From: an uncultured Bacilli bacterium
Lineage (GTDB): Bacteria > Bacillota_I > Bacilli_A > RF39 > UBA660
Assembly: GCA_947630585.1 (NCBI GenBank)
Contig: CANRIE010000002.1
Span: forward strand, 1-39,248
DNA length: 39,248 bases
Direction: 5' to 3'
Shown here: piece after piece, positions 15,227 to 38,701 of the stretch
Position numbering within the stretch: position 1 is the first letter of the stretch
Layout of the letters: every line of letters begins with the position of its first letter
Translations under genes and position numbers: made by a program
The notes under the pieces: model-generated
Databases searched by the model: none
Told to the model about the DNA's origin: nothing
What the model saw: the letters and a program-made list of their open reading frames with translations, nothing else

Positions 15227-17197
15227 TTATTCAGGCAAACCTATTGTGTAGGCAGTATCAGGACTCATCCCATCTCCCGAAGTTATTATTACTTCAGACT
15301 TTAGAAAAATAGTAGGACGTGTGGCTTGAAGATCATATGGTTGAACAGTAGTAAGACCACCATCATAATTTGCTCGAAATACTTGATAAGATGAGGTATT
15401 TGTAGTAGCTGGTGTTATTAACCATAAATTTTGTAGAGTATCATTACTACCACCTCCTAATATTGCTGAAAACATTTCTCCTACTCGAGGTAGTCCAACG
15501 AGTCCTGTCCATGTACTACTTGTTTTTGTACAATTTTTAGTTGTTTCGTTAATATCTTCTTCTAAACATATAGCTATTTTATAATTTCCTTTCGATGAAT
15601 ATGTACTTACAGTTCCTAAATAATATGTTCCTTCTGTTATATATTTTTTTAAATTATCAGTTAGCCACACGTTATTTAAATAATAACCCCACCAACTATC
15701 ATTACCATTCACTGAGTGTTCCCAACTTGTATCGTTTAAAATATATGAATAACTTTTTCTTAATATATTATTTTTTTCATCTCTTACATAATCTGTACTT
15801 ATTAATTTAGTTGTTCCATTATCTTCTACATTAATTATTCTATAAATTTTATCATCTACTTTGACATACTCCCCACTTAATCTTGTATTTACTTTTTCAT
15901 TCGCTTTTCCAATTTCTTTATCCACTTTTATACGATAAGGATTGTCCTTGCTTCCATCTCCAACGTCTGTAATCAAAACTTTAGATTTTAAATTAACAAC
16001 AGGACGCGGAGATGCACTAGAAAGAGAGCTTTGACAAGCATTATGATAACCATTAGTATCTACTATTTGAATCATATTTTTACTTTCACATGGAGTTATT
16101 AATTTCCAATAATAGCCTATATTTAAATATCCATTTTTATAAGCATCAGAAGTAGTGCCTAATTTTAGATAACTTTGATAATATTCATATGTATTTAATA
16201 AACCAACAGCTCCATTTACTATTTTTCCCGTAATTGGTGGTTTTTTTGGCGTAGTACCAAGATAAGATGAATTCCAACTAGCATCTTCTACAATTGTTTC
16301 TTCATAATTATATAAGGTACTCAAGAAATCTTCATTTAACCATTGATATATCCATGAACCTTCATAGGTTGAAGTTTCATTCCAGTGTAACGATCCCATT
16401 AAATCTTGAGTAATTATTTTTATTGTCTCATCAGGATTAATTGCTACTATTCTCCATAGTTTTCCGGAATACCAGATATAATTGAAATTAATTGTCTCAT
16501 TACTACCTGATAAATAAATTGTTCCATCCGTATCTGTTATAGAATTGCTATCATTTATCTTTTCTTTAATAGTTTTATATAATGATATACCAACAGATTT
16601 TTCTTCAAAATCTCCATTTACTGATACTTTGATACTTGCAAATACATCATTATTCCATACTTTACTTGAGTAATCAGCACCTTCTATATCTCCAATACTA
16701 ACTTCATCTGTTATCCACATATATAATCTATATTTAATACTTGTCTTAGTTTTAGTATTAGATGCAATTGTATTAACCCATATTTTTGTGTTATCTATCT
16801 CCTCATAAGTTCCATCTTCAATAACTGGAGTAACTTCATCACCTACTATTTCTTCAAGTCTAAATCTTAAGAATTTATCATCAAGTCTTGTTTTTCTTGT
16901 TTCATGTTCTTCTCCATGATTTATTAATATTTCATAATAAATATCTTTAGAATATGTATTCTTGCCTTCAATTGTAAATTCAAAATAAGTTTCAGGGTCA
17001 TAACTACTCCTTGGCATCATTAATTCAGCATTAATGACAGTATTACTTTCGGTATATTTCATAAATACATCGCCTGCAACTAAGACTTGATTTTCAGTTG
17101 TATTTACAAATATAAAATAAGCAAAAGCTCCACTTATTACCCCTACCATAACTAATAAGGTTATTAGTCCTACTATTAATATTTTTTTATTATTCAT
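15227..17197 (-). CDS. Paralog 1 of a secreted/surface protein family (TasA-like signal region plus two WLITP...RP lectin-like modules)
   Basis: 656 aa with a GGAG RBS. The N-terminus is a KK-hydrophobic stretch ending GAFAYF, followed by VLVAGDVFMKYTESN. There are two modules ending YYWKLITP...SPRPVVNLKS and NLWLITP...ATRPTIFLKS. The N-terminal third is similar to 36318-37958 and the remainder is similar to 24828-26777. Confidence 0.8.
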   Translation of the reverse strand: MNNKKILIVGLITLLVMVGVISGAFAYFIFVNTTENQVLVAGDVFMKYTESNTVINAELMMPRSSYDPETYFEFTIEGKNTYSKDIYYEILINHGEEHETRKTRLDDKFLRFRLEEIVGDEVTPVIEDGTYEEIDNTKIWVNTIASNTKTKTSIKYRLYMWITDEVSIGDIEGADYSSKVWNNDVFASIKVSVNGDFEEKSVGISLYKTIKEKINDSNSITDTDGTIYLSGSNETINFNYIWYSGKLWRIVAINPDETIKIITQDLMGSLHWNETSTYEGSWIYQWLNEDFLSTLYNYEETIVEDASWNSSYLGTTPKKPPITGKIVNGAVGLLNTYEYYQSYLKLGTTSDAYKNGYLNIGYYWKLITPCESKNMIQIVDTNGYHNACQSSLSSASPRPVVNLKSKVLITDVGDGSKDNPYRIKVDKEIGKANEKVNTRLSGEYVKVDDKIYRIINVEDNGTTKLISTDYVRDEKNNILRKSYSYILNDTSWEHSVNGNDSWWGYYLNNVWLTDNLKKYITEGTYYLGTVSTYSSKGNYKIAICLEEDINETTKNCTKTSSTWTGLVGLPRVGEMFSAILGGGSNDTLQNLWLITPATTNTSSYQVFRANYDGGLTTVQPYDLQATRPTIFLKSEVIITSGDGMSPDTAYTIGLPE

Positions 17198-17222
17198 TTT
17201 ATCATACTCCTATTCTATTTAT

Positions 17223-17251
17223 ATTTTAACATGTTCTGCCCCTAAATACAA
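17223..17251 (-). promoter_or_regulatory. Putative gene-proximal promoter of paralog 1
   Basis: On the minus strand, TTGTAT, a 17-nt spacer and TAAAAT with an upstream TGt (extended -10) lie between the terminator and the RBS. The same arrangement is conserved upstream of paralog 2. Confidence 0.4.
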
Positions 17252-17260
17252 ATCATATTT

Positions 17261-17306
17261 AAAAAGACATATAAAACCTAGTATTATTCTACCAGTTTTA
17301 TATGTC
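17261..17306 (-). terminator. Intrinsic terminator inside the upstream cassette of paralog 1
   Basis: A perfect 12-bp stem GACATATAAAAC / GTTTTATATGTC with a 17-nt loop is followed by TTTTT on the minus strand. The same stem sequence occurs at 26848-26891, and a related stem occurs at 38058-38112. Confidence 0.7.
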
Positions 17307-17339
17307 GAAATTCATCGTTTATTGTAATTTCATTTTGTA

Positions 17340-17414
17340 TTAATTTTGATACACCCCCCCCATTGTTATCAAATTGTCAACATATTTTCTTGATACATTA
17401 ATTAATTTTAACAT
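17340..17414 (-). CDS. Conserved 24-codon sORF containing a G8 tract (MLKLINVSRKYVDNLITMGGVYQN)
   Basis: A strong AAAGGTAGGTGA RBS lies 5 nt upstream of the ATG. The homopolymer at 17354-17361 encodes Gly-Gly. Paralogous sORFs with the same peptide core (YV-N/D-x-L-x-T-x-GG-x-Y) lie at 26919-26999 and 38138-38209. Confidence 0.6.
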   Translation of the reverse strand: MLKLINVSRKYVDNLITMGGVYQN

Positions 17415-17442
17415 GAGGGTCACCTACCTTTAATCTATTACT

Positions 17443-17471
17443 ATGATATCATGTTTAATTAGTTTTGACAA
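17443..17471 (-). promoter_or_regulatory. Putative promoter of the sORF cassette (paralog 1)
   Basis: On the minus strand: TTGTCA, a 17-nt spacer and TGaTATCAT (extended -10). The TGATAT(C/G)AT element is conserved in all three cassettes. Confidence 0.45.
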
Positions 17472-24827: not shown

Positions 24828-26777
24828 CTAATTTTTTTTATTATTTTCACTTGGTAACCCAATTGTATAGGCACTTTCAGGACTCATTCCATCTCCTCCA
24901 GTTATTTTAACTTCTGGTTTTAGATAAATGGATGGCCGCGTGCCATGTTGATCCGAAGAAGGGCCGGTGCTGCCGAGACTTCCATTGTTAAAGACAAAGG
25001 ACATGTTCGAGCCACTATATGGTGTTATTAACCATATATCTGCTAAGGTATCATTATAACCTTTACCTAGCATTGCCGAAAACATTTCTCCCATTCTTGG
25101 TAATCCTACTAAACCTCGCCAAGTAGTTGTTGTTTTTTCACAACTACTTGCTGGTTCTGTTGTATTGCTTGCTCTACATATTGAATTTTTAAAACTCGTA
25201 ACCTCTCCTACTTGTCCCAAATAATAAGTCCCATCTGTTATATATTTTTGAAGTTCAGTTGTTAACCATGTATTATTCAAGTAATAACCCCAATGCCACA
25301 CGTTGCCGTTTGATACTACTGTTCCATAATTTCTTATTGAATTAGAACTGGAAAAATTTTTAGTTAAGACTGTATCACCATCTCTTACATAATCGACACT
25401 TGTTAATTTGGTTATGTTATTACCCTCATCATCTTTATCTATTCCTACTATTCTATATATTTTATTATCTACTTCGACATACTCACCACTTAATCTCGTA
25501 TTGATTAAATCTCCATTATTTCCTGATTCTTTATCATCATTTATTCGATATGGATTAGTCTCACTTCCATCTCCACCTGCTACTATTCCGATATTTGATT
25601 TTAGATTTATAGATGGACGAACACCCTTTGCTCCCGAAAAGGGATTGTTATTGCTGAGATTGCCATATTCGCTGACGTACCATACATTCGAACTAACTGG
25701 TGTTATTAACCACCAATTATATCCATTTTTCAAATATCCTCTTGAAGAAATTGTATTTTTATAACTTTGATATTGTTCATACGCATTTAATAATCCTACA
25801 TCTCCAGTTACCATTGTTGTTTCAGGTATTTTCGTAGTATAACTTGTAGTTTCTGTTGCATTCCAAGAGGCATCTTTGACTATTATATTCTCATAATTAT
25901 ATAAGGTATCCTTAAAATCTTCATTTAACCATTGATATATCCAGGAAGCTTTATAGTTATCTTTATCTTTATTTTTATATATTGTATCTTCTCCCCAAGA
26001 TATTGCTGTTATTTCATCTTGGGTTATTAATTTCATGGAACCATCTGAATTAATTGCTACTATTCTCCATAGTTTTCCGGAATACCAGACATAATTGAAA
26101 TTAACACATTCGTTATCTCCTGAAAAATAGATTATATCATCACTTGGATCACTTGGGGTTCCATTATCATCTGTTAAAGTTGGAGTACATGTATCAGTTG
26201 TATGACTTGCAATTGCTTCTATTAAAGTATCTTTTAAAGGCATAGTCTTATCTAAATTTTGATTACCTTCTACTACTACTTTAGCTTTAAACTCTTTATT
26301 CATATAAGTATTATCGGCAGTTTCCATAAGCCATACTTTAACATGATATTCACTTGTTTCTCCTACTTTTAATTTACCTTCACTTTCTATATATTTATCT
26401 TCACTTAATATTTTAGGTTCAGAATAACCTTTATTATCTTTATTTACTATATATTTTATAACTGTTTTAAATTCAGGATCAGTAGATAACTCTTCAATAT
26501 AAACATTATAATTAGCAACTAAGTTACCTGTATTTTTTACTTGGAATACTAATTCTTGTTCTAAACTCTCACCTTCTTCATCAGTCATAGGATACATATT
26601 AGATAGATTTAAAAACTGAGTTTTCGAGTCCTCAAATGTAACTTCTAATGTACCTACATTAATTACATAATTATTAGTAGATTCTTTAGTATACATTAAA
26701 TAAGCATAACTAGAGCCTAGTATTAATACTAAACTTAATGTTATTATCATTATTAATAAATTTCTTTTATTATTCAT
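24828..26777 (-). CDS. Paralog 2 of the secreted/surface protein family (TasA/camelysin-like N-terminal domain plus two WLITP...RP modules)
   Basis: 649 aa. The N-terminus GSSYAYLMYTKESTNNYVINVGTLEVTF...LNLSNMYP...VFQVKNTGNL parallels the TasA/CalY pattern. The C-terminal two thirds are collinear with paralog 1, including a 56-nt block with a single mismatch (26049-26104 versus 16436-16491). Confidence 0.8.
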   Translation of the reverse strand: MNNKRNLLIMIITLSLVLILGSSYAYLMYTKESTNNYVINVGTLEVTFEDSKTQFLNLSNMYPMTDEEGESLEQELVFQVKNTGNLVANYNVYIEELSTDPEFKTVIKYIVNKDNKGYSEPKILSEDKYIESEGKLKVGETSEYHVKVWLMETADNTYMNKEFKAKVVVEGNQNLDKTMPLKDTLIEAIASHTTDTCTPTLTDDNGTPSDPSDDIIYFSGDNECVNFNYVWYSGKLWRIVAINSDGSMKLITQDEITAISWGEDTIYKNKDKDNYKASWIYQWLNEDFKDTLYNYENIIVKDASWNATETTSYTTKIPETTMVTGDVGLLNAYEQYQSYKNTISSRGYLKNGYNWWLITPVSSNVWYVSEYGNLSNNNPFSGAKGVRPSINLKSNIGIVAGGDGSETNPYRINDDKESGNNGDLINTRLSGEYVEVDNKIYRIVGIDKDDEGNNITKLTSVDYVRDGDTVLTKNFSSSNSIRNYGTVVSNGNVWHWGYYLNNTWLTTELQKYITDGTYYLGQVGEVTSFKNSICRASNTTEPASSCEKTTTTWRGLVGLPRMGEMFSAMLGKGYNDTLADIWLITPYSGSNMSFVFNNGSLGSTGPSSDQHGTRPSIYLKPEVKITGGDGMSPESAYTIGLPSENNKKN

Positions 26778-26804
26778 ATTCTTTTACTCCTCTATTCTAT
26801 TTAT

Positions 26805-26833
26805 ATTTTAACATATTATGTCCCGTTTTACAA
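26805..26833 (-). promoter_or_regulatory. Putative gene-proximal promoter of paralog 2
   Basis: On the minus strand, TTGTAA, a 17-nt spacer and TAAAAT with TGt (extended -10), matching the position in paralog 1. Confidence 0.4.
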
Positions 26834-26842
26834 ATCAAAATT

Positions 26843-26891
26843 AAAAAGACATATAAAACCTAGTAGTATTATTCTACCAGTTTTATATGTC
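26843..26891 (-). terminator. Intrinsic terminator inside the upstream cassette of paralog 2
   Basis: The stem GACATATAAAAC / GTTTTATATGTC is identical to the 17266-17306 stem. TTTTT follows on the minus strand. Confidence 0.7.
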
Positions 26892-26918
26892 GAAAATTAT
26901 CATTAATTGTAATTTTAA

Positions 26919-26999
26919 TTAGATGATTTTTTGATACACCCCCCCCGTAGTTATCAAATTGTTAACATATTTATTTGATACAAAAATCATTTTTAACAT
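26919..26999 (-). CDS. Conserved 26-codon sORF containing a G8 tract (MLKMIFVSNKYVNNLITTGGVYQKII)
   Basis: The AAAGGTAGGTGA RBS lies 5 nt upstream of the ATG. The homopolymer at 26939-26946 encodes Gly-Gly. The peptide is collinear with the sORFs at 17340-17414 and 38138-38209. Confidence 0.6.
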   Translation of the reverse strand: MLKMIFVSNKYVNNLITTGGVYQKII

Positions 27000-27027
27000 G
27001 AGGGTCACCTACCTTTAATCTATTAAC

Positions 27028-27036
27028 ATGATATCA
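27028..27036 (-). promoter_or_regulatory. Extended -10 element TGATATCAT of the sORF cassette (paralog 2)
   Basis: This is the same TGATATCAT element, at the same distance from the sORF RBS, as in paralog 1. The -35 is poor (TTTCCA). Confidence 0.35.
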
Positions 27037-34283: not shown

Positions 34284-34388
34284 CGGGCGAACGGCATTAT
34301 TATTGTTCACGTTGTTCGAACTTACGTTCCCAGTCGTATTCCAATTAGCAACATTATTAGAGTTGTTAGAGGACGGAGACAAAAGCCA
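34284..34388 (-). repeat. DGR template repeat (TR)
   Basis: This 105 nt starts 12 nt after the RT stop and aligns without gaps to 36399-36503. The coding-strand sense reads WLLSPSSNNSNNVANWNTTGNVSSNNVNNNNAVRP, dominated by AAC/AAT codons. Confidence 0.9.
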
Positions 34389-34400
34389 CAACTCGCCAAT

Positions 34401-35507
34401 TTAATTTATCCTACCCCAAAAATATTTATTAACAATATTTTTAACTTTAATATTATTTGTATATTTAAAACTATAAAGATAAGTATTAATACTTGAAAAA
34501 CATTTTTCAAAACTAATATAACCTTTATTATATAAATACTTAACTTCTTTAACTCTTCTTTTTATTTTCTTTAAAGTATCTTTTTTTATTTTTATAATTG
34601 TTTTATTATTTTTAATAATAAAACGATATCCTAAAAAACAAAATCCTTCTTTACTACTTACTATTTTTGTTTTCTTTTTATTTATTTCTAATTTATAATC
34701 ATTATTTAATATCTTTTCAATTTTATTTAAACATTCTTCTAAATATTTCTTATTAGGATGCATGATTATAAGGTCATCCATGTACACTATTGTGTATTTA
34801 AGATGTAAATCATGAACAATATAATGAATTAATCTTGATAAATAAAATATTGATAGAAATTGACTAGTCATAGCTCCAAGTCCTAACCCTTTACCATCTT
34901 TATATCTTGGTAAATCATTTAATTTATCTTTATCATAAGGTCTTTTCTTAATCATTTCAACAATCCTAGAATCAATATCAGAATTTATATAACTACTATT
35001 AGTACTATCAATTATTCTACTAATTAATGTATATTCATCATTATCTAATTTGCATTTAATCAAACTCTTTAATACATCATGGTCTATATTATAAAAATAC
35101 TTTTTAATATCAATTTTTAATATATAAAAATTACCATATTTCTTACATTTTTCTAAATACTTTTTAACTAACTTAATTCCATAATCTACACCATATCCAC
35201 TTCTAGTTGCAACTATTCTATTATCTAAATATTTATCTAATTTTGGAATTAAAACATATCTTGCTAAATAATGATTAATAACTTTATCTTTAATTCTTAA
35301 AGACATTACTATTCTATACTTAGGTTCTCTAATTATAAATATATTATATTTACTAGGATAATAACTCATATTAGTAAGTTCATTATAGATATTTATGATA
35401 TTTTGCATTTTATTTCTTTCAAATACATAAACTTTTTTCTTATTCTTAGTATTCTTTCTAATTTCTAAATCATAAATATCTATTAAATCTTTAATATTAA
35501 CTTTCAT
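34401..35507 (-). CDS. DGR-type reverse transcriptase
   Basis: 368 aa with the catalytic motif VYMDDLIIMH and GLGAMTSQFLS (the [I/L]GxxxSQ signature characteristic of DGR RTs). No maturase/endonuclease domain or intron RNA is present. It overlaps the Avd-like gene by 11 nt, and TR lies immediately downstream. Confidence 0.9.
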   Translation of the reverse strand: MKVNIKDLIDIYDLEIRKNTKNKKKVYVFERNKMQNIINIYNELTNMSYYPSKYNIFIIREPKYRIVMSLRIKDKVINHYLARYVLIPKLDKYLDNRIVATRSGYGVDYGIKLVKKYLEKCKKYGNFYILKIDIKKYFYNIDHDVLKSLIKCKLDNDEYTLISRIIDSTNSSYINSDIDSRIVEMIKKRPYDKDKLNDLPRYKDGKGLGLGAMTSQFLSIFYLSRLIHYIVHDLHLKYTIVYMDDLIIMHPNKKYLEECLNKIEKILNNDYKLEINKKKTKIVSSKEGFCFLGYRFIIKNNKTIIKIKKDTLKKIKRRVKEVKYLYNKGYISFEKCFSSINTYLYSFKYTNNIKVKNIVNKYFWGRIN

Positions 35508-35835
35508 CTTGAATCCATTTAAACAACATCTTATTAATACTAAGTAATCTATTACTTAATTTAATAGATTGTTTTTCACTTATTATCCTCTTCTTAAAAC
35601 TTTGCTCTATATAAAAGTCAATTAAATTAACTTTCATAATAGTTTTAATTTGAATATCTTTTCTTTTATCTATATTAGTATAATTAGCAGTATAAACTAG
35701 TTCTAATAATTCATAACTATCATTAACTAATCTATTTCTAAGTTCAAAGTATTTTCTAGGATAATTAATTAAATAATCATCAAGTATCATAATAAATTCT
35801 TTAATATATTTAGCAATAACAAACTTATCATTCAT
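35497..35835 (-). CDS. avd: Avd-like (accessory variability determinant) four-helix-bundle protein
   Basis: 112 aa, basic and predicted all-helical. The YPRKYFELRNRL and EKQSIKLSNRLLSINKMLFKWI pattern resembles the Avd / 23S-rRNA-IVS protein family. It is translationally coupled to the RT. Confidence 0.75.
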   Translation of the reverse strand: MNDKFVIAKYIKEFIMILDDYLINYPRKYFELRNRLVNDSYELLELVYTANYTNIDKRKDIQIKTIMKVNLIDFYIEQSFKKRIISEKQSIKLSNRLLSINKMLFKWIQDES

Positions 35836-36317: not shown

Positions 36318-37958
36318 CTATGCTATTTCAGGGTAATATGGAGTATTCAAACTTCCATCTCCATCTGTTATTTTTATATCGGATATTAGATTAACGGACG
36401 GGCGAACGGCAATATTAGAGCTCACGTTGAGCGAACTTACGCTCTCAGTCGTATCCCAATTAGCAACATCAGTAGAGTCGTGAGAGGACGGAGACAAAAG
36501 CCATCCATAGTTACTTGGCATACTATTCATCCAACTTGCTGATTTTATACTACTAAAATCTTTTAATTGCTTATCCCAATTATCATTTTCACTGCTTACT
36601 GAAAAGCCATAATCGCTTGGATACATTAAGGCAATTTTTCCTTCCCAGGTTGCTTGATTTTCTTTCCACACTTTACATCCATTTTCACTTTCAGATTTTC
36701 CAGTATTTTCAACGCAACTTGCAACATCTCTTTCATTCGCATAGGCTTCTTTTGGATTATCAATTATTCCTGTATAACTTTCAGGATCATAAGTTACTGT
36801 TCCCAAATAATATTTGGTGTCTTTTATCATATCTTTGGCATTTTTACTTAAGTAACTCATGTACCCATCACTTGGTTGTTTTGTATATTTATCAATTCCA
36901 GCATTTAACCAATATTGGAGTCCTGCTGTTGCCCAGTCATTATTGTATGTTCCACTTGTTTTTTTATTCCAATAAGCATAGTTCCCACTTGTATATTGAA
37001 TATTATATTCAGTTCCACTTGCAGAAAAAGTTGCAGGGAACATATCTCTTGTTAAAACTTTATTATTAACTATTTTTAAGTGTTCTTCTCCACTTTCATC
37101 TTTGAATACTCCGATTATTCTCCATATTTCACAATTAGAACTTGCAGTTTCATAAGTTGTATTATCACTACAATTAAAATAAATATAATTCTTTATTCCA
37201 TCATTTCCAGAATAACGATATTCTCTTACCTCATCATCTTTTGAAGTTGTTGGAGTATTATCAGATTTTACTCCAATTACTCCTCCTGCTTGGCCTATAG
37301 TATCTTTAACAACATCAGTTCCAATTTCACTTTTAATTTCTTTCTCATCAAAGTCACCATTTACGGATACTTTGATACTTGCAAAAACATTATCATTCCA
37401 TGTTTCCATATCATAATCAGCAAGACTTGTATTTCCTATATTAGTCTTAGGGGATATCCACATATATAATTTATACGTTATTTCTACATTATCTGTATTT
37501 GCATCTATTGTATTTATCCATATTGCTTTTCCATCTTTTATATTACTATAACTTGCATTATCTAATACTGTTTTATCAACTCCATCTTTGGTTTCTACTA
37601 ACCTAAACATTAATAAGTTATCTTTTATTCTTTCTGTTCTTTCTGTATTTTCATCTCCTGTTGGTTCTTCTCCCCAATTTAAAACTATTTCATACCAAAT
37701 TGGTTTTGAATATTTATTCCTTCCTTCGATTGTAAACTCGAAATAATCATCATCACCTGGTTCAGCTTTAGGTAAAGCATTTGTAATTGATAGTTCATTA
37801 GATTCCGTATATTTCATGAATACATCTCCGCTTATCAAAACTTGATTTTGGAGCGTATTTGAATATGTCCATATTGCAAATGTTACTCCGAATATTAGAA
37901 CTAAACAAATCGCTGCTATAACTCCAACTATAACTCCCTTTTTACGTTTATTTTCCAT
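36318..37958 (-). CDS. Paralog 3 of the secreted/surface protein family; DGR target (variable protein)
   Basis: 546 aa with a GGAGGAAATAG RBS. The signal-like N-terminus and N-terminal domain are closely similar to paralog 1 (NQVLISGDVFMKYTESN, YFEFTIEGRNKYSK, ASIKVSVNGDFDEK). The C-terminal module GWLLSPSSHDSTDVANWDTTESVSSLNVSSNIAVRPSVNL carries the VR. Confidence 0.85.
   Translation of the reverse strand: MENKRKKGVIVGVIAAICLVLIFGVTFAIWTYSNTLQNQVLISGDVFMKYTESNELSITNALPKAEPGDDDYFEFTIEGRNKYSKPIWYEIVLNWGEEPTGDENTERTERIKDNLLMFRLVETKDGVDKTVLDNASYSNIKDGKAIWINTIDANTDNVEITYKLYMWISPKTNIGNTSLADYDMETWNDNVFASIKVSVNGDFDEKEIKSEIGTDVVKDTIGQAGGVIGVKSDNTPTTSKDDEVREYRYSGNDGIKNYIYFNCSDNTTYETASSNCEIWRIIGVFKDESGEEHLKIVNNKVLTRDMFPATFSASGTEYNIQYTSGNYAYWNKKTSGTYNNDWATAGLQYWLNAGIDKYTKQPSDGYMSYLSKNAKDMIKDTKYYLGTVTYDPESYTGIIDNPKEAYANERDVASCVENTGKSESENGCKVWKENQATWEGKIALMYPSDYGFSVSSENDNWDKQLKDFSSIKSASWMNSMPSNYGWLLSPSSHDSTDVANWDTTESVSSLNVSSNIAVRPSVNLISDIKITDGDGSLNTPYYPEIA
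36399..36503 (-). repeat. DGR variable repeat (VR)
   Basis: The 105 nt show 13 mismatches to TR. Twelve are at positions that are A in the TR coding strand (30 A in total). The VR ends 26 codons before the stop. The A-free GC-rich 3' end GCCGTTCGCCCG is identical to TR. Confidence 0.9.
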
Positions 37959-38005
37959 TTCTATTTCCTCCTTCTGGGCTTACGCCCCTCTACTATTACA
38001 TTTTC

Positions 38006-38034
38006 ATTATAAAATATTTTTAGGATTTTAGCAA
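38006..38034 (-). promoter_or_regulatory. Putative gene-proximal promoter of paralog 3
   Basis: On the minus strand, TTGCTA, a 17-nt spacer and TATAAT lie between the cassette terminator and the RBS. A small GGGC-GTAA-GCCC hairpin follows. Confidence 0.45.
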
Positions 38035-38057
38035 GTCTTTTTTTAAATCCTCATGTG

Positions 38058-38112
38058 AAAAAAGACATATTTAAAATAAGTATTATCAATACCATATTTT
38101 ATATGTCTTTTT
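38058..38112 (-). terminator. Intrinsic terminator inside the upstream cassette of paralog 3
   Basis: Stem AAAAAGACATAT / ATATGTCTTTTT has additional inner pairing AAAATA/TATTTT, and a T-run follows on the minus strand. It shares the GACATAT core with the other two cassettes. Confidence 0.65.
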
Positions 38113-38137
38113 GTATCTTTTACTATACTTTGAATAA

Positions 38138-38209
38138 CTAAAAGTGGTAGCCCCCCCCCAATGTCGACAAGTAGTTAACATACATATTTATCATATTTAC
38201 TATATTCAT
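38138..38209 (-). CDS. Conserved 23-codon sORF containing a G9 tract (MNIVNMINMYVNYLSTLGGGYHF)
   Basis: The AAAGGAAGTG RBS lies 6 nt upstream of the ATG. The homopolymer at 38151-38159 encodes Gly-Gly-Gly. The nucleotide sequence has diverged from the other two cassettes, but the peptide core YVN-L-T-GG-Y and the reading frame are kept. Confidence 0.55.
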   Translation of the reverse strand: MNIVNMINMYVNYLSTLGGGYHF

Positions 38210-38244
38210 AAACTACACTTCCTTTATTCTTAAAATACAACTTA

Positions 38245-38253
38245 ATCATATCA
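38245..38253 (-). promoter_or_regulatory. Extended -10 element TGATATGAT of the sORF cassette (paralog 3)
   Basis: It occupies the same position relative to the sORF RBS as TGATATCAT in the other two cassettes. Confidence 0.35.
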
Positions 38254-38296
38254 TATAATTTGAATTAAGGGAAGAGTATATTTTTCTAATTAGACA

Positions 38297-38701
38297 TTAT
38301 TTGACATATAATTTATTATTCTTTTTAAACTTAATATTTTTTAAGATAATACTTAAAAGAATAAAATAACTAATATTTAAAATAATACTATTTTTAAATT
38401 TATATATTAAATCACTTATAGTAACTATATTATAATTACTTAATTTAACTAATAAAAATAATATTAAATCATATAAAAAGATAAATATAATTACTAATAT
38501 TAAACTTATAAAATAATTACATCTTATAAATTTATCTATCTTTTTTATTATTTTAGCAAATAATAAAAATATTAAACTATTAAATAATAAAATATATGAA
38601 AATAATAAATCATAGATTAAACCTATTATAAATACAGTTTGTAAGTATTTTTTATTATCAATTTTATTATATAAAAATACAATTAAAGTTAAAGTTAACA
38701 T
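38297..38701 (-). CDS. mreD: MreD-like rod-shape membrane protein (apparently short at the N-terminus)
   Basis: This polytopic hydrophobic 134-aa ORF lies directly downstream of mreC and has an IIGLIYDLLF motif like the MreD GxxYD motif. No RBS precedes the ATG, and TM-like coding remnants lie upstream in other frames. Confidence 0.5.
   Translation of the reverse strand: MLTLTLIVFLYNKIDNKKYLQTVFIIGLIYDLLFSYILLFNSLIFLLFAKIIKKIDKFIRCNYFISLILVIIFIFLYDLILFLLVKLSNYNIVTISDLIYKFKNSIILNISYFILLSIILKNIKFKKNNKLYVK

Follow-up and report, generated by a model that had tools for sequence, protein, structure and literature searches.

The window, meaning the whole 39,248-nt stretch of DNA that was analysed, is bacterial chromosome from an uncultured Bacilli bacterium and encodes AlaRS, LysRS and MreD. 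A phage origin was rejected. Megablast against a phage collection gave merely a 200-nt match of 79% identity covering 1% of the query, and the cassette motif described below has no match in viral contigs. In the Rfam analysis of the window, two tRNAs alone are above the gathering thresholds. The MreD protein cluster has one member, and exact-protein look-ups of the neighbours of cassette copies 1 and 2 and of the DGR accessory gene found no match.

Three copies of a short module, here called the cassette, stand in front of larger genes in the window (Table 1). Runs of at least G7 occur only three times in the 39 kb, all on the minus strand and one per cassette (at 17.3, 26.9 and 38.1 kb). These three runs give 7 overlapping matches to the G7 pattern, compared with 0.34 in shuffled sequence. 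Copies 1 and 2 are 78% identical to one another, and copy 3 is 57-58% identical to each of them. The copy 3 cassette lies between mreD and a gene associated with a diversity-generating retroelement (DGR).

Table 1. Features of the copy 3 locus, of the adjoining DGR and of the two other cassettes in the window.
Feature	Position	Strand	Remark
mreD, upstream neighbour of the copy 3 cassette	38297-38701		
Copy 3 P1, extended -10 promoter element TGATATGAT	38245-38253	-	Exact match
Copy 3 Shine-Dalgarno (SD) of the leader sORF, AAAGGAAGTG	38216-38225	-	Read in sequence
Copy 3 leader sORF, ATG to TAG	38138-38209	-	23 codons + TAG; encodes MNIVNMINMYVNYLSTLGGGYHF
Copy 3 palindrome GTTAAC-N5-GTCGAC	38163-38179	-	Degenerate form of the family palindrome GTTGACAA-N-TTGTCAAC
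Copy 3 G9 homopolymeric tract	38151-38159	-	3' end of the sORF
Copy 3 intrinsic terminator	38057-38112	-	Hairpin GACATAT..ATATGTC + T6
Copy 3 P2, TTGCTA-17-TATAAT	38006-38034	-	Between terminator and main gene; 10/12 consensus positions
Small G+C hairpin GGGGCGTAAGCCC in the 5' UTR	37976-37988	-	Directly 5' of the main SD; read in sequence
Main gene, DGR variable protein	36318-37958	-	546 aa, N-terminal signal anchor; main ATG at 37958
DGR variable repeat (VR)	36399-36503	-	
bAvd-like DGR accessory protein	35497-35835	-	PF22296, E = 4.4e-7, 30.8 bits (under the family's 40-bit gathering cut-off)
DGR reverse transcriptase (RT)	34401-35507	-	Pfam RVT_1, E = 8e-20
DGR template repeat (TR)	34284-34388	-	
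Cassette copy 2	26843-27036	-	P1 27028-27036, sORF 26919-26999, G8 26939-26946, terminator 26843-26891
Downstream of copy 2, outside the cassette interval	24828-26833	-	P2 26805-26833, gene 24828-26777
Cassette copy 1	17261-17451	-	P1 17443-17451, sORF 17340-17414, G8 17354-17361, terminator 17261-17306
Downstream of copy 1, outside the cassette interval	15227-17251	-	P2-like 17223-17251, gene 15227-17197

The main gene behind copy 3 is confirmed as a true DGR target. It carries the VR at its 3' end, and the TR/VR pair adjoins genes for a reverse transcriptase and an Avd-type accessory protein. The TR and the VR are 88% identical, and their mismatches fall nearly all at TR adenines.

Every copy 3 element named in the original prediction was confirmed on the minus strand at the position given there: promoter, SD, sORF, G9 tract, terminator and second promoter. 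P1 has no -35 element. The leader SD gives the best anti-SD duplex, at -9.2 kcal/mol, and lies 7 nt 5' of the ATG. The palindrome is 3 nt upstream of the G9 tract. Recoding of GGGGGGGGG to GGAGGTGGC would give an identical peptide without the homopolymer. The terminator folds at -15.5 kcal/mol (z = -4.8), and none of 200 shuffled sequences is equally stable. The small G+C hairpin in the 5' UTR of the main gene has the variants GGGGCAAAACCCC in L003 and L004 and GGGGCAAAACCCT in L075. A permissive Rfam scan of the cassette gave merely meaningless miRNA and snoRNA matches and no family match at the gathering or E-value threshold.

The copy 3 cassette is one of a large multi-copy family that is not limited to the three copies of the window. 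The scan pattern GTTRACNNNTTGNNNACNNNGGGGGGG, applied to one genome per species, yielded 75 loci, 68 of which belong to AT-rich MAGs of uncultured Bacilli or Clostridia, most of them from the gut of rabbits. The core motif is present in at least 12 AT-rich MAG species, and single genomes contain many copies (27 matches in Lapin-012 bin89, 16 loci in Lapin-033 bin8, 10 in Lapin-032 bin104 and 7 in BRZ_EL bin60). The 508 kb of AT-rich DNA from these loci holds only three further runs of at least G7, two of which are variant cassettes. A scan of JGI metagenomes found six true cassettes; the rest are mostly chance matches in GC-rich DNA. Homologues with the same architecture were also found through the protein alone: L150 and L151 (Hadza human gut), L152 and L153 (GCA_017472015), and L154 and L155 (both JGI). 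Since these were found independently of the DNA pattern, they are unbiased by the motif search. Two members of the cargo family (L157 and L158) have no cassette.

The order of elements is constant in the family. P1 (TTGnnA-17-TGnTAnnAT) is followed by an SD and ATG, an ORF of 16-43 codons, a G8-G12 run at the 3' end of the ORF, and a terminator. All subfamilies have conserved the TGnTAnnAT element at this position, often preceded by TTGnnA at a distance of 17 nt. A small hairpin often lies between the run and a strong two-tier intrinsic terminator. Most copies have a terminator hairpin of -10 to -23 kcal/mol with a T run after it; in a few, the call is weak or absent. In approximately two thirds of the copies, just 18-35 nt separate the T run of the terminator from the SD and ATG of the main gene. 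This gap leaves no room for a promoter, so these genes need read-through. Where the SD and ATG directly follow the terminator in this way, the cassette is, from its layout, an attenuator. The remaining third, including all three copies of the window, has an insert of 50-105 nt after the terminator. Most of these inserts, again including those of all window copies, hold a near-consensus promoter, P2 (TTGnnA-17-TGnTATAAT). Further variants are L077, in which the cassette module is in frame with the main ORF, and L082, L066 and L019, in which the long frame overlaps the start codon of the main gene.

The genes behind the cassettes belong to one mosaic superfamily of secreted proteins. These share an N-terminal signal anchor, a ...SYALF/FAFFTYS... 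motif and a first domain of the AGDIYMKYT type. The family has 1306 homologues, and among the matches listed the sole named one is hypothetical. Pfam matches are limited to DUF6273 and a sub-threshold match to the camelysin N-terminus, and no NCBIfam match was found for the cargo proteins. A few cassettes stand before acyltransferase-like genes, which are a classical phase-variable cargo.

The leader frame was analysed in 23 representatives in all, made up of cassettes below 80% identity together with the three unbiased ones found through the protein, and the leader ATG was picked solely by the best anti-SD duplex. The frame picked in this manner is open up to the tract in 23 of the 23 representatives. 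It has no stop in 424 codons, compared with 54 stops in each of the two alternative frames, and the chance of an open leader frame is 0.04-0.5 per cassette. Length differences in the N-terminal part of the leader are indels in multiples of three. By this pattern the leader sORF is a genuine open frame, and its translation is presumed. In 8 of 20 cassettes the spacer between SD and ATG is C-rich and complementary to the tract.

The peptide is a different matter. The original prediction had described a translated, selected sORF rather than a fortuitous one; the frame is indeed open, but selection on the peptide does not follow from the substitution pattern. Between copies 1 and 2, pN is 0.147 and pS is 0.107, so that the peptide is not preserved in spite of DNA divergence, as had been proposed. 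The suggested dN/dS comparison of the sORFs gives a pN/pS of about 1 between the sORFs (about 1.4 for copy 1 versus copy 2, on approximately 10 substitutions) and no peptide conservation. The first Y of the supposedly selected core Y-V-N-x-L-x-T-x-G-G-x-Y is Y, R or S among strains at the same locus, and codon 10 of the copy 3 leader is hypervariable between strains (TAT, CGT or AGT).

At the nucleotide level, most copies contain the palindrome GTTGACAA-N-TTGTCAAC at 3 nt before the tract, with the general form GTYRAC-N5-GTYRAC. In L152 it is kept by a double compensatory change (GTTGACTC-T-GAGTCAAC) that replaces Leu with Glu. In the BRZ, L077 and L082 cassettes, another frame is used to read the same DNA motif. 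The hairpin upstream of the tract is absent from the BRZ, L150 and L154 cassettes. The Gly residues at the tract are always encoded by an unbroken G run, despite the AT-rich genome. By this comparison, what is conserved in the leader appears to be the open frame and the nucleotide palindrome, not the peptide.

The stop positions of the three frames leaving the tract have a regular geometry. In all 46 cassettes analysed, the leader of one tract-length class stops 1-17 nt past the tract, and this short-class stop precedes the hairpin by at least 22 nt, mostly by 29-60 nt. In the same 46 cassettes, the stop of one or more other classes lies from -9 to +82 relative to the hairpin start. Among the 23 representatives the long-class stop is at -5 or later, and none of their stops is between -21 and -7. 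This binary design is found in 23 of 23 representatives, compared with 8.6 expected from spacer shuffles. Its joint probability over 10 lineages is approximately 1e-4, with thresholds that were set after the data were seen. A stop 1-6 nt before the hairpin is observed in 7 of 23 representatives, and 3.2 are expected. A shuffle test for a single open frame did not reach significance (P = 0.5-0.9 for each cassette, with a product of 10^-1.1), and one open alternative frame over approximately 45 nt is not rare by chance. Approximately 80% of the assembled copies are in the short state.

At copy 3 the stops are at -33 (G9), +19 (G8) and +62 (G10) relative to the hairpin start. The G8 frame stops at TGG TAT TGA in the hairpin loop and the G10 frame reads through the whole hairpin to the TGA in CACATGAGG, both as originally predicted. 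Either direction of change thus gives a long frame in copy 3; in other lineages the long frame requires +1G in some and -1G in others. As the direction is not conserved, the geometry fits DNA indels and not directional ribosomal or transcriptional slippage. An antiterminator helix was sought in 21 cassettes, in which the duplex of the upstream sequence with the 5' arm is no better than in shuffles (mean z 0.08). Its absence fits direct melting of the hairpin by the ribosome.

The premise that the tract is mutable agrees with the strain comparison at copy 3, in which consensus assemblies have G8, G9 or G10. Orthologues of copy 3 were taken from contigs with the exact MreD protein. The tract is G9 in five contigs, among them L001, L002, L003 and L008. 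It is G8 in L004 (3.3x coverage, with other SNPs present), where the leader enters the terminator loop, and G10 in L009, at the contig end. In the family, tract length differs in 8 of 59 cassette pairs with at most 10 mismatches in 80 flanking nt and is the same in the other 51. Allelic differences include L140 versus L141, L031 versus its paralogues, and L155 (G12) versus L154 (G10). All of these differences were read from consensus assemblies, in part with only 1.5-5x coverage, and Illumina G-homopolymer error is possible in individual cases.

A leader with the same parts and distances is known from the pil1 and pil3 loci of S. gallolyticus, where the reading frame of a leader-peptide ORF is altered by the GCAGA repeats inside it (Danne et al. 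2014, PMC3894217). When the leader is short, it stops 39 bp ahead of the terminator (28 nt or more in other isolates) and pilus expression is low; long, out-of-frame leaders stop adjoining, within or past the hairpin, and expression is high, since the ribosome blocks hairpin formation (PMC3894217). The mechanism was demonstrated with terminator-deletion, start-codon and stop-codon mutants (PMC3894217). Like pil1 and pil3, the cassette has a promoter, a putatively translated leader ORF with a simple-sequence repeat, an intrinsic terminator and a gene for a surface structure, and neither system uses an antiterminator helix. Copy 3 itself has the leader SD and start, the strain-variable repeat, the terminator and the short versus long stop geometry. 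As pil1 has the same parts and distances, its mechanism is the best supported one for the cassette.

The following sequence of events is proposed on this basis. P1, a constitutive-looking sigma-A promoter, would transcribe a short leader holding a translated sORF whose 3' end is the G8-G12 homopolymer. The intrinsic terminator would lie 30-60 nt further on, ahead of the gene for a secreted or surface protein. Replication slippage would alter the tract by at least one G and change the frame of the ribosome leaving it. In the short class, the ribosome would halt 1-17 nt past the tract and at least 22 nt before the hairpin, and the terminator would form with little read-through. In the long class, the ribosome would reach the base of the hairpin, its interior or beyond, the 5' arm would be covered, and transcripts from P1 would reach the gene. 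For copy 3, G9 would be the short (low) state and G8 and G10 the long (high) states.

This family-level mechanism, a multi-copy phase-variation (contingency) leader attenuator, is considered somewhat more probable than all other readings taken together. It is consistent with the anatomy, the open frame, the frame geometry, the tract differences between strains and the family distribution. Translation itself, the slippage rate and the effect on transcription are carried over from S. gallolyticus pil1 and pil3. In Bacilli, transcription frequently runs uncoupled from translation, which counts against a switch that depends on ribosome position. Results from S. gallolyticus and L. lactis show that such a mechanism can work in Firmicutes despite uncoupling. 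The palindrome beside the tract is left unexplained by the switch model. A broader version, which appears rather improbable, would make the cassette a portable, lineage-wide contingency module in which the palindrome is the functional partner of the tract, either programming its instability or pausing RNA polymerase for coupling to the leader ribosome; stacked on the DGR, it would subject one surface protein to both expression switching and hypermutation.

P2 complicates the interpretation at copy 3. The original prediction had listed TTGCTA-17-TATAAT as a part of the cassette, and it is present, but its place 3' of the terminator had been overlooked. Expression by read-through alone, with no promoter after the terminator, applies to approximately two thirds of the family and not to copy 3. 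As P2 lies downstream of the terminator, the DGR target is probably transcribed at any tract length. The cassette could then be bypassed altogether, with P2 driving the DGR target constitutively and tract changes having no meaningful effect on it. P1, the sORF and the terminator would be an inherited 5' module, whose only possible use would be to shield P2 from mreCD transcription arriving from upstream. P2 is closer to the consensus than P1 with its missing -35, is part of the module in all three window copies, and is identical in L003, L004 and L075 although the UTR that follows it diverges. A relic, however, is expected to decay or to have its tract interrupted. The sORF, SD, unbroken tract and terminator are kept in the P2-bearing copies (those of the window, L075, L024, L150, L152 and L154), and the copy 3 tract is still variable between strains. 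This persistence of intact leaders and tracts alongside P2, in several species, argues against a pure relic, and bypass is judged unlikely, though it has a real share of the probability. Under the attenuator model, the tract in copies 1-3 most likely adds read-through from P1 to expression from P2 and would not act as a full on/off switch. The proposed on/off layer above hypermutation is thus upheld for the tract, the frame logic and the strain polymorphism, but not for complete on/off control, given the bypass by P2. How far the tract affects expression of the DGR target is uncertain; it may plausibly act as a modulating layer, and on/off switching is doubtful.

Two other readings dispense with mutation of the tract. 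Ribosomal frameshifting or RNA-polymerase slippage on the G run could tune read-through, with a fixed or condition-dependent fraction of ribosomes entering the long frame and the upstream hairpin possibly stimulating this. The run provides a perfect slippery heptamer (G GGG GGG), IS elements offer known cases of hairpin-stimulated transcriptional slippage, and in most copies a hairpin of 7-8 bp ends 3 nt before the run, which itself ends 11 nt after the hairpin. Such slippage is very unlikely, as no single direction explains lineages that need +1G, lineages that need -1G and copy 3, where either serves; moreover, BRZ, L150 and L154 have no hairpin and genomic tract lengths differ between alleles. 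Alternatively, the leader could be a sensing peptide (a ribosome-arrest or Gly-codon attenuator) or contain a binding site for a regulator, and the G run would not be a mutable tract. The C-terminal motif V-[ND]-x-L-S-T-x-G-G recurs in many copies, and in L154, which has no palindrome, synonymous codons specify a similar peptide (VSDLSLGGGA); the compensatory change in L152 points to the palindrome as a possible site. Against these stand the pN/pS of about 1 between sORFs, the hypervariable codon 10, the unbroken G run for Gly, and the lack of an antiterminator helix or Rfam family match. L150 has neither the peptide motif nor the palindrome and nonetheless has the full architecture, and the cargo consists of surface proteins, not glycine metabolism. 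A sensing leader or regulator site is accordingly held to be highly improbable, and a conserved functional peptide was rejected given the pN/pS, the reading of the motif in other frames in BRZ, L077 and L082, and the lack of an NCBIfam match to the cargo proteins.

Two known types of promoter switch were also assessed. A homopolymer switch in a promoter spacer (vlp, porA or tpr type) does not fit, as the candidate spacers are 13 or 21-23 nt on either strand, not near 17, and the tract sits inside an ORF with an SD. An invertible P1 (fimS or mpl type) was considered for L006, a single contig at 1.5x in which a 42-bp P1 segment is inverted between CTTCCCTT and AAGGGAAG. The last 54 nt of L006 are the reverse complement of an internal stretch, so this is a fold-back contig; the inversion is probably an artefact, and the segment is very short. 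No inverted repeats flanking P1 are visible in the other cassettes read.

Relative to a pil1-type attenuator, several properties of the cassette appear to be new, namely the homopolymer, the short leader, the many copies, the other cargo, the palindrome, the optional P2 and the DGR cargo. The repeat in pil1 and pil3 consists of 13-22 GCAGA units, whereas the cassette has a homopolymer of G8-G12, placed at the extreme 3' end of a leader of 16-43 codons. The pil system has two loci and the cassette occurs in tens of copies per genome. In place of sortase pili, the cargo comprises TasA/camelysin-like signal-peptide proteins and some acyltransferases. Unlike in pil1 and pil3, a palindrome flanks the tract, one third of the copies have a second promoter and one copy fronts a DGR target. 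The pil system is proven experimentally, whereas the cassette is known from sequence alone. A literature search found no further example of a leader-ORF repeat attenuator beyond S. gallolyticus, and a search combining DGRs with phase variation found no paper.

Other systems share single aspects of the cassette. The vlp genes of Mycoplasma hyorhinis have a poly(A) tract in the promoter spacer that acts on transcription initiation. As in vlp, many paralogous surface-protein genes each have a conserved 5' homopolymer module, which would allow independent combinatorial on/off switching; in the cassette, however, the tract is in a putatively translated leader upstream of a terminator. The cwpV switch of Clostridioides difficile, said to have been described by Emerson and colleagues in 2009, is reportedly a recombinase-driven DNA inversion with no leader translation. 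The likeness to cwpV is in phase variation after initiation, with an intrinsic terminator forming or not forming in the leader of a surface-protein gene. The difference is that the cassette would use a slippage-prone tract and depend on ribosome position. In trp, his and pyrBI attenuation, a leader ORF also precedes an intrinsic terminator and the position of the ribosome decides termination. The variable in those operons is ribosome stalling, whereas in the cassette it would be the reading frame. Unlike those leaders, the cassette has no run of regulatory codons tied to cargo function and no 2:3 antiterminator helix. Campylobacter and Neisseria have intragenic poly-G contingency loci with frameshift switching and surface-related cargo. 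The cassette resembles these in its G8-G12 tract, AT-rich genome and surface cargo, and in L077 the module is used intragenically. In most copies, copy 3 included, the tract is instead in a separate leader ORF that would control a terminator.

If the attenuator model is correct, a clade of uncultured small-genome gut Bacilli (rabbit, ruminant and Hadza human) would operate dozens of stochastic switches, each independent of the others, on a mosaic family of surface proteins. So far the mechanism is documented at only two loci of one streptococcus, and leader-ORF attenuation would then be a general contingency strategy, with a search signature for metagenomes of SD-ATG, short ORF, at least G8 and terminator. 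Copy 3 would be a natural case of expression switching and DGR diversification on one gene. For annotation, the 16-43 codon ORFs and their G tracts would be functional elements and would also cause assembly breaks. The low-coverage contigs L002, L007, L009, L010, L011 and L156 end at the tract or within approximately 20 nt of it.

Most cassettes among the many loci read carry the palindrome GTTGACAA-N-TTGTCAAC 3 nt 5' of the leader G tract. The palindrome is a pair of GTYRAC hexamers with a spacing of 11 bp. At locus L152, it is retained through a double compensatory change, and the peptide is altered from Leu to Glu. It is absent from the cassettes of BRZ_EL bin60 and from those at L150 and L154. 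The palindrome may serve as a pause hairpin or a protein site, or it may influence slippage.

A C-rich stretch (CCCC, CCTCCC or ACCCTC) occurs in 8 of the 20 representative cassettes, in the spacer from the Shine-Dalgarno sequence (SD) to the leader ATG. Elsewhere, just 2.2% of 6-nt windows reach this C content. This stretch is complementary to the G tract and could thereby sequester the leader start. Copy 3, the cassette preceding the DGR target gene, does not contain the C-rich stretch. In its minimum free energy (MFE) fold, GUGUAG pairs with CUACCAC, 3' of the tract.

Positions of features in the window and at other loci
Feature	Locus	Positions	Remark
Palindrome	window	38163-38179	
Palindrome	L152	about 975-991	
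GACCCTC preceding leader ATG	window	17415-17421; 27000-27006	
C-rich SD-ATG spacer	L020, L035, L036, L046, L066, L075, L079		
Leader codon 10, copy 3	window	38180-38182	
A run 5' of P2 -35 and inverted-repeat region	window	38035-38050	
Inverted P1 segment	L006	1100-1251	orthologue of window 38215-38300
Module at 5' end of main ORF	L077	5942-6300	plus orientation
Leader overlapping main start codon	L082	4022-4260	
Copy-3-type cassette and target homologue region	L075	3578-6011	Lapin-032 bin104

Codon 10 of the copy-3 leader is TAT, CGT or AGT (Y, R or S) across strains when the window is compared with L002, L003, L004, L007 and L009, and the flanks are otherwise nearly identical. The ODAI contigs L088 and L107 have near-identical leaders, distinguished by a single A in an A7/A8 run directly 5' of GTTAAC, which places the L088 leader out of frame. 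This run may be a second homopolymer within the same leader. The leader motif V-D-K-L-S-T of Lapin-012 bears an apparent resemblance to the ErmBL stalling region N-V-D-K-T-S-T. Since the K is not conserved in other cassette subfamilies, this resemblance is probably a coincidence.

Immediately 5' of the -35 element of P2, the promoter between the copy-3 terminator and the main gene, the A run is A7, A8 or A9 among relatives (window, L003, L004 and L075). An inverted repeat, AGGATTT...AAATCCT, flanks this -35 element on both sides. These features may represent an UP element or an operator. At L006, a contig with 1.5x coverage, the 42-bp segment with the cassette promoter P1 lies in inverted orientation between CTTCCCTT and AAGGGAAG, after which the contig doubles back on itself. 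Either the contig is a fold-back chimera or it hints at an invertible promoter. The repeat on the left, CTTCC(C)TTT, additionally resembles an anti-SD sequence and is complementary to the leader SD.

At L077, the SD-ATG-motif-G10 module serves as the main ORF's 5' end. The product of this ORF is SGNH/DltD-like and has a TM helix. With the present G10 the ORF is truncated, and the full protein is regained with another tract length. L077 is a classical intragenic switch made from the same module. In the long frame, the leaders of L082, L066 and L019 cross the terminator and end in an ATGA-type overlap with the main start codon. This overlap suggests translational coupling on top of antitermination. 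The cargo of L082 is an acyltransferase-3-like membrane protein.

Lapin-032 bin104 (L075) carries the copy-3-type cassette and a target homologue with 62% identity. The 119-aa gene and the Avd-like gene are also present there, at 95-97% identity, and no RT was found beside them by tblastn. The DGR may have decayed, or the RT may work in trans.
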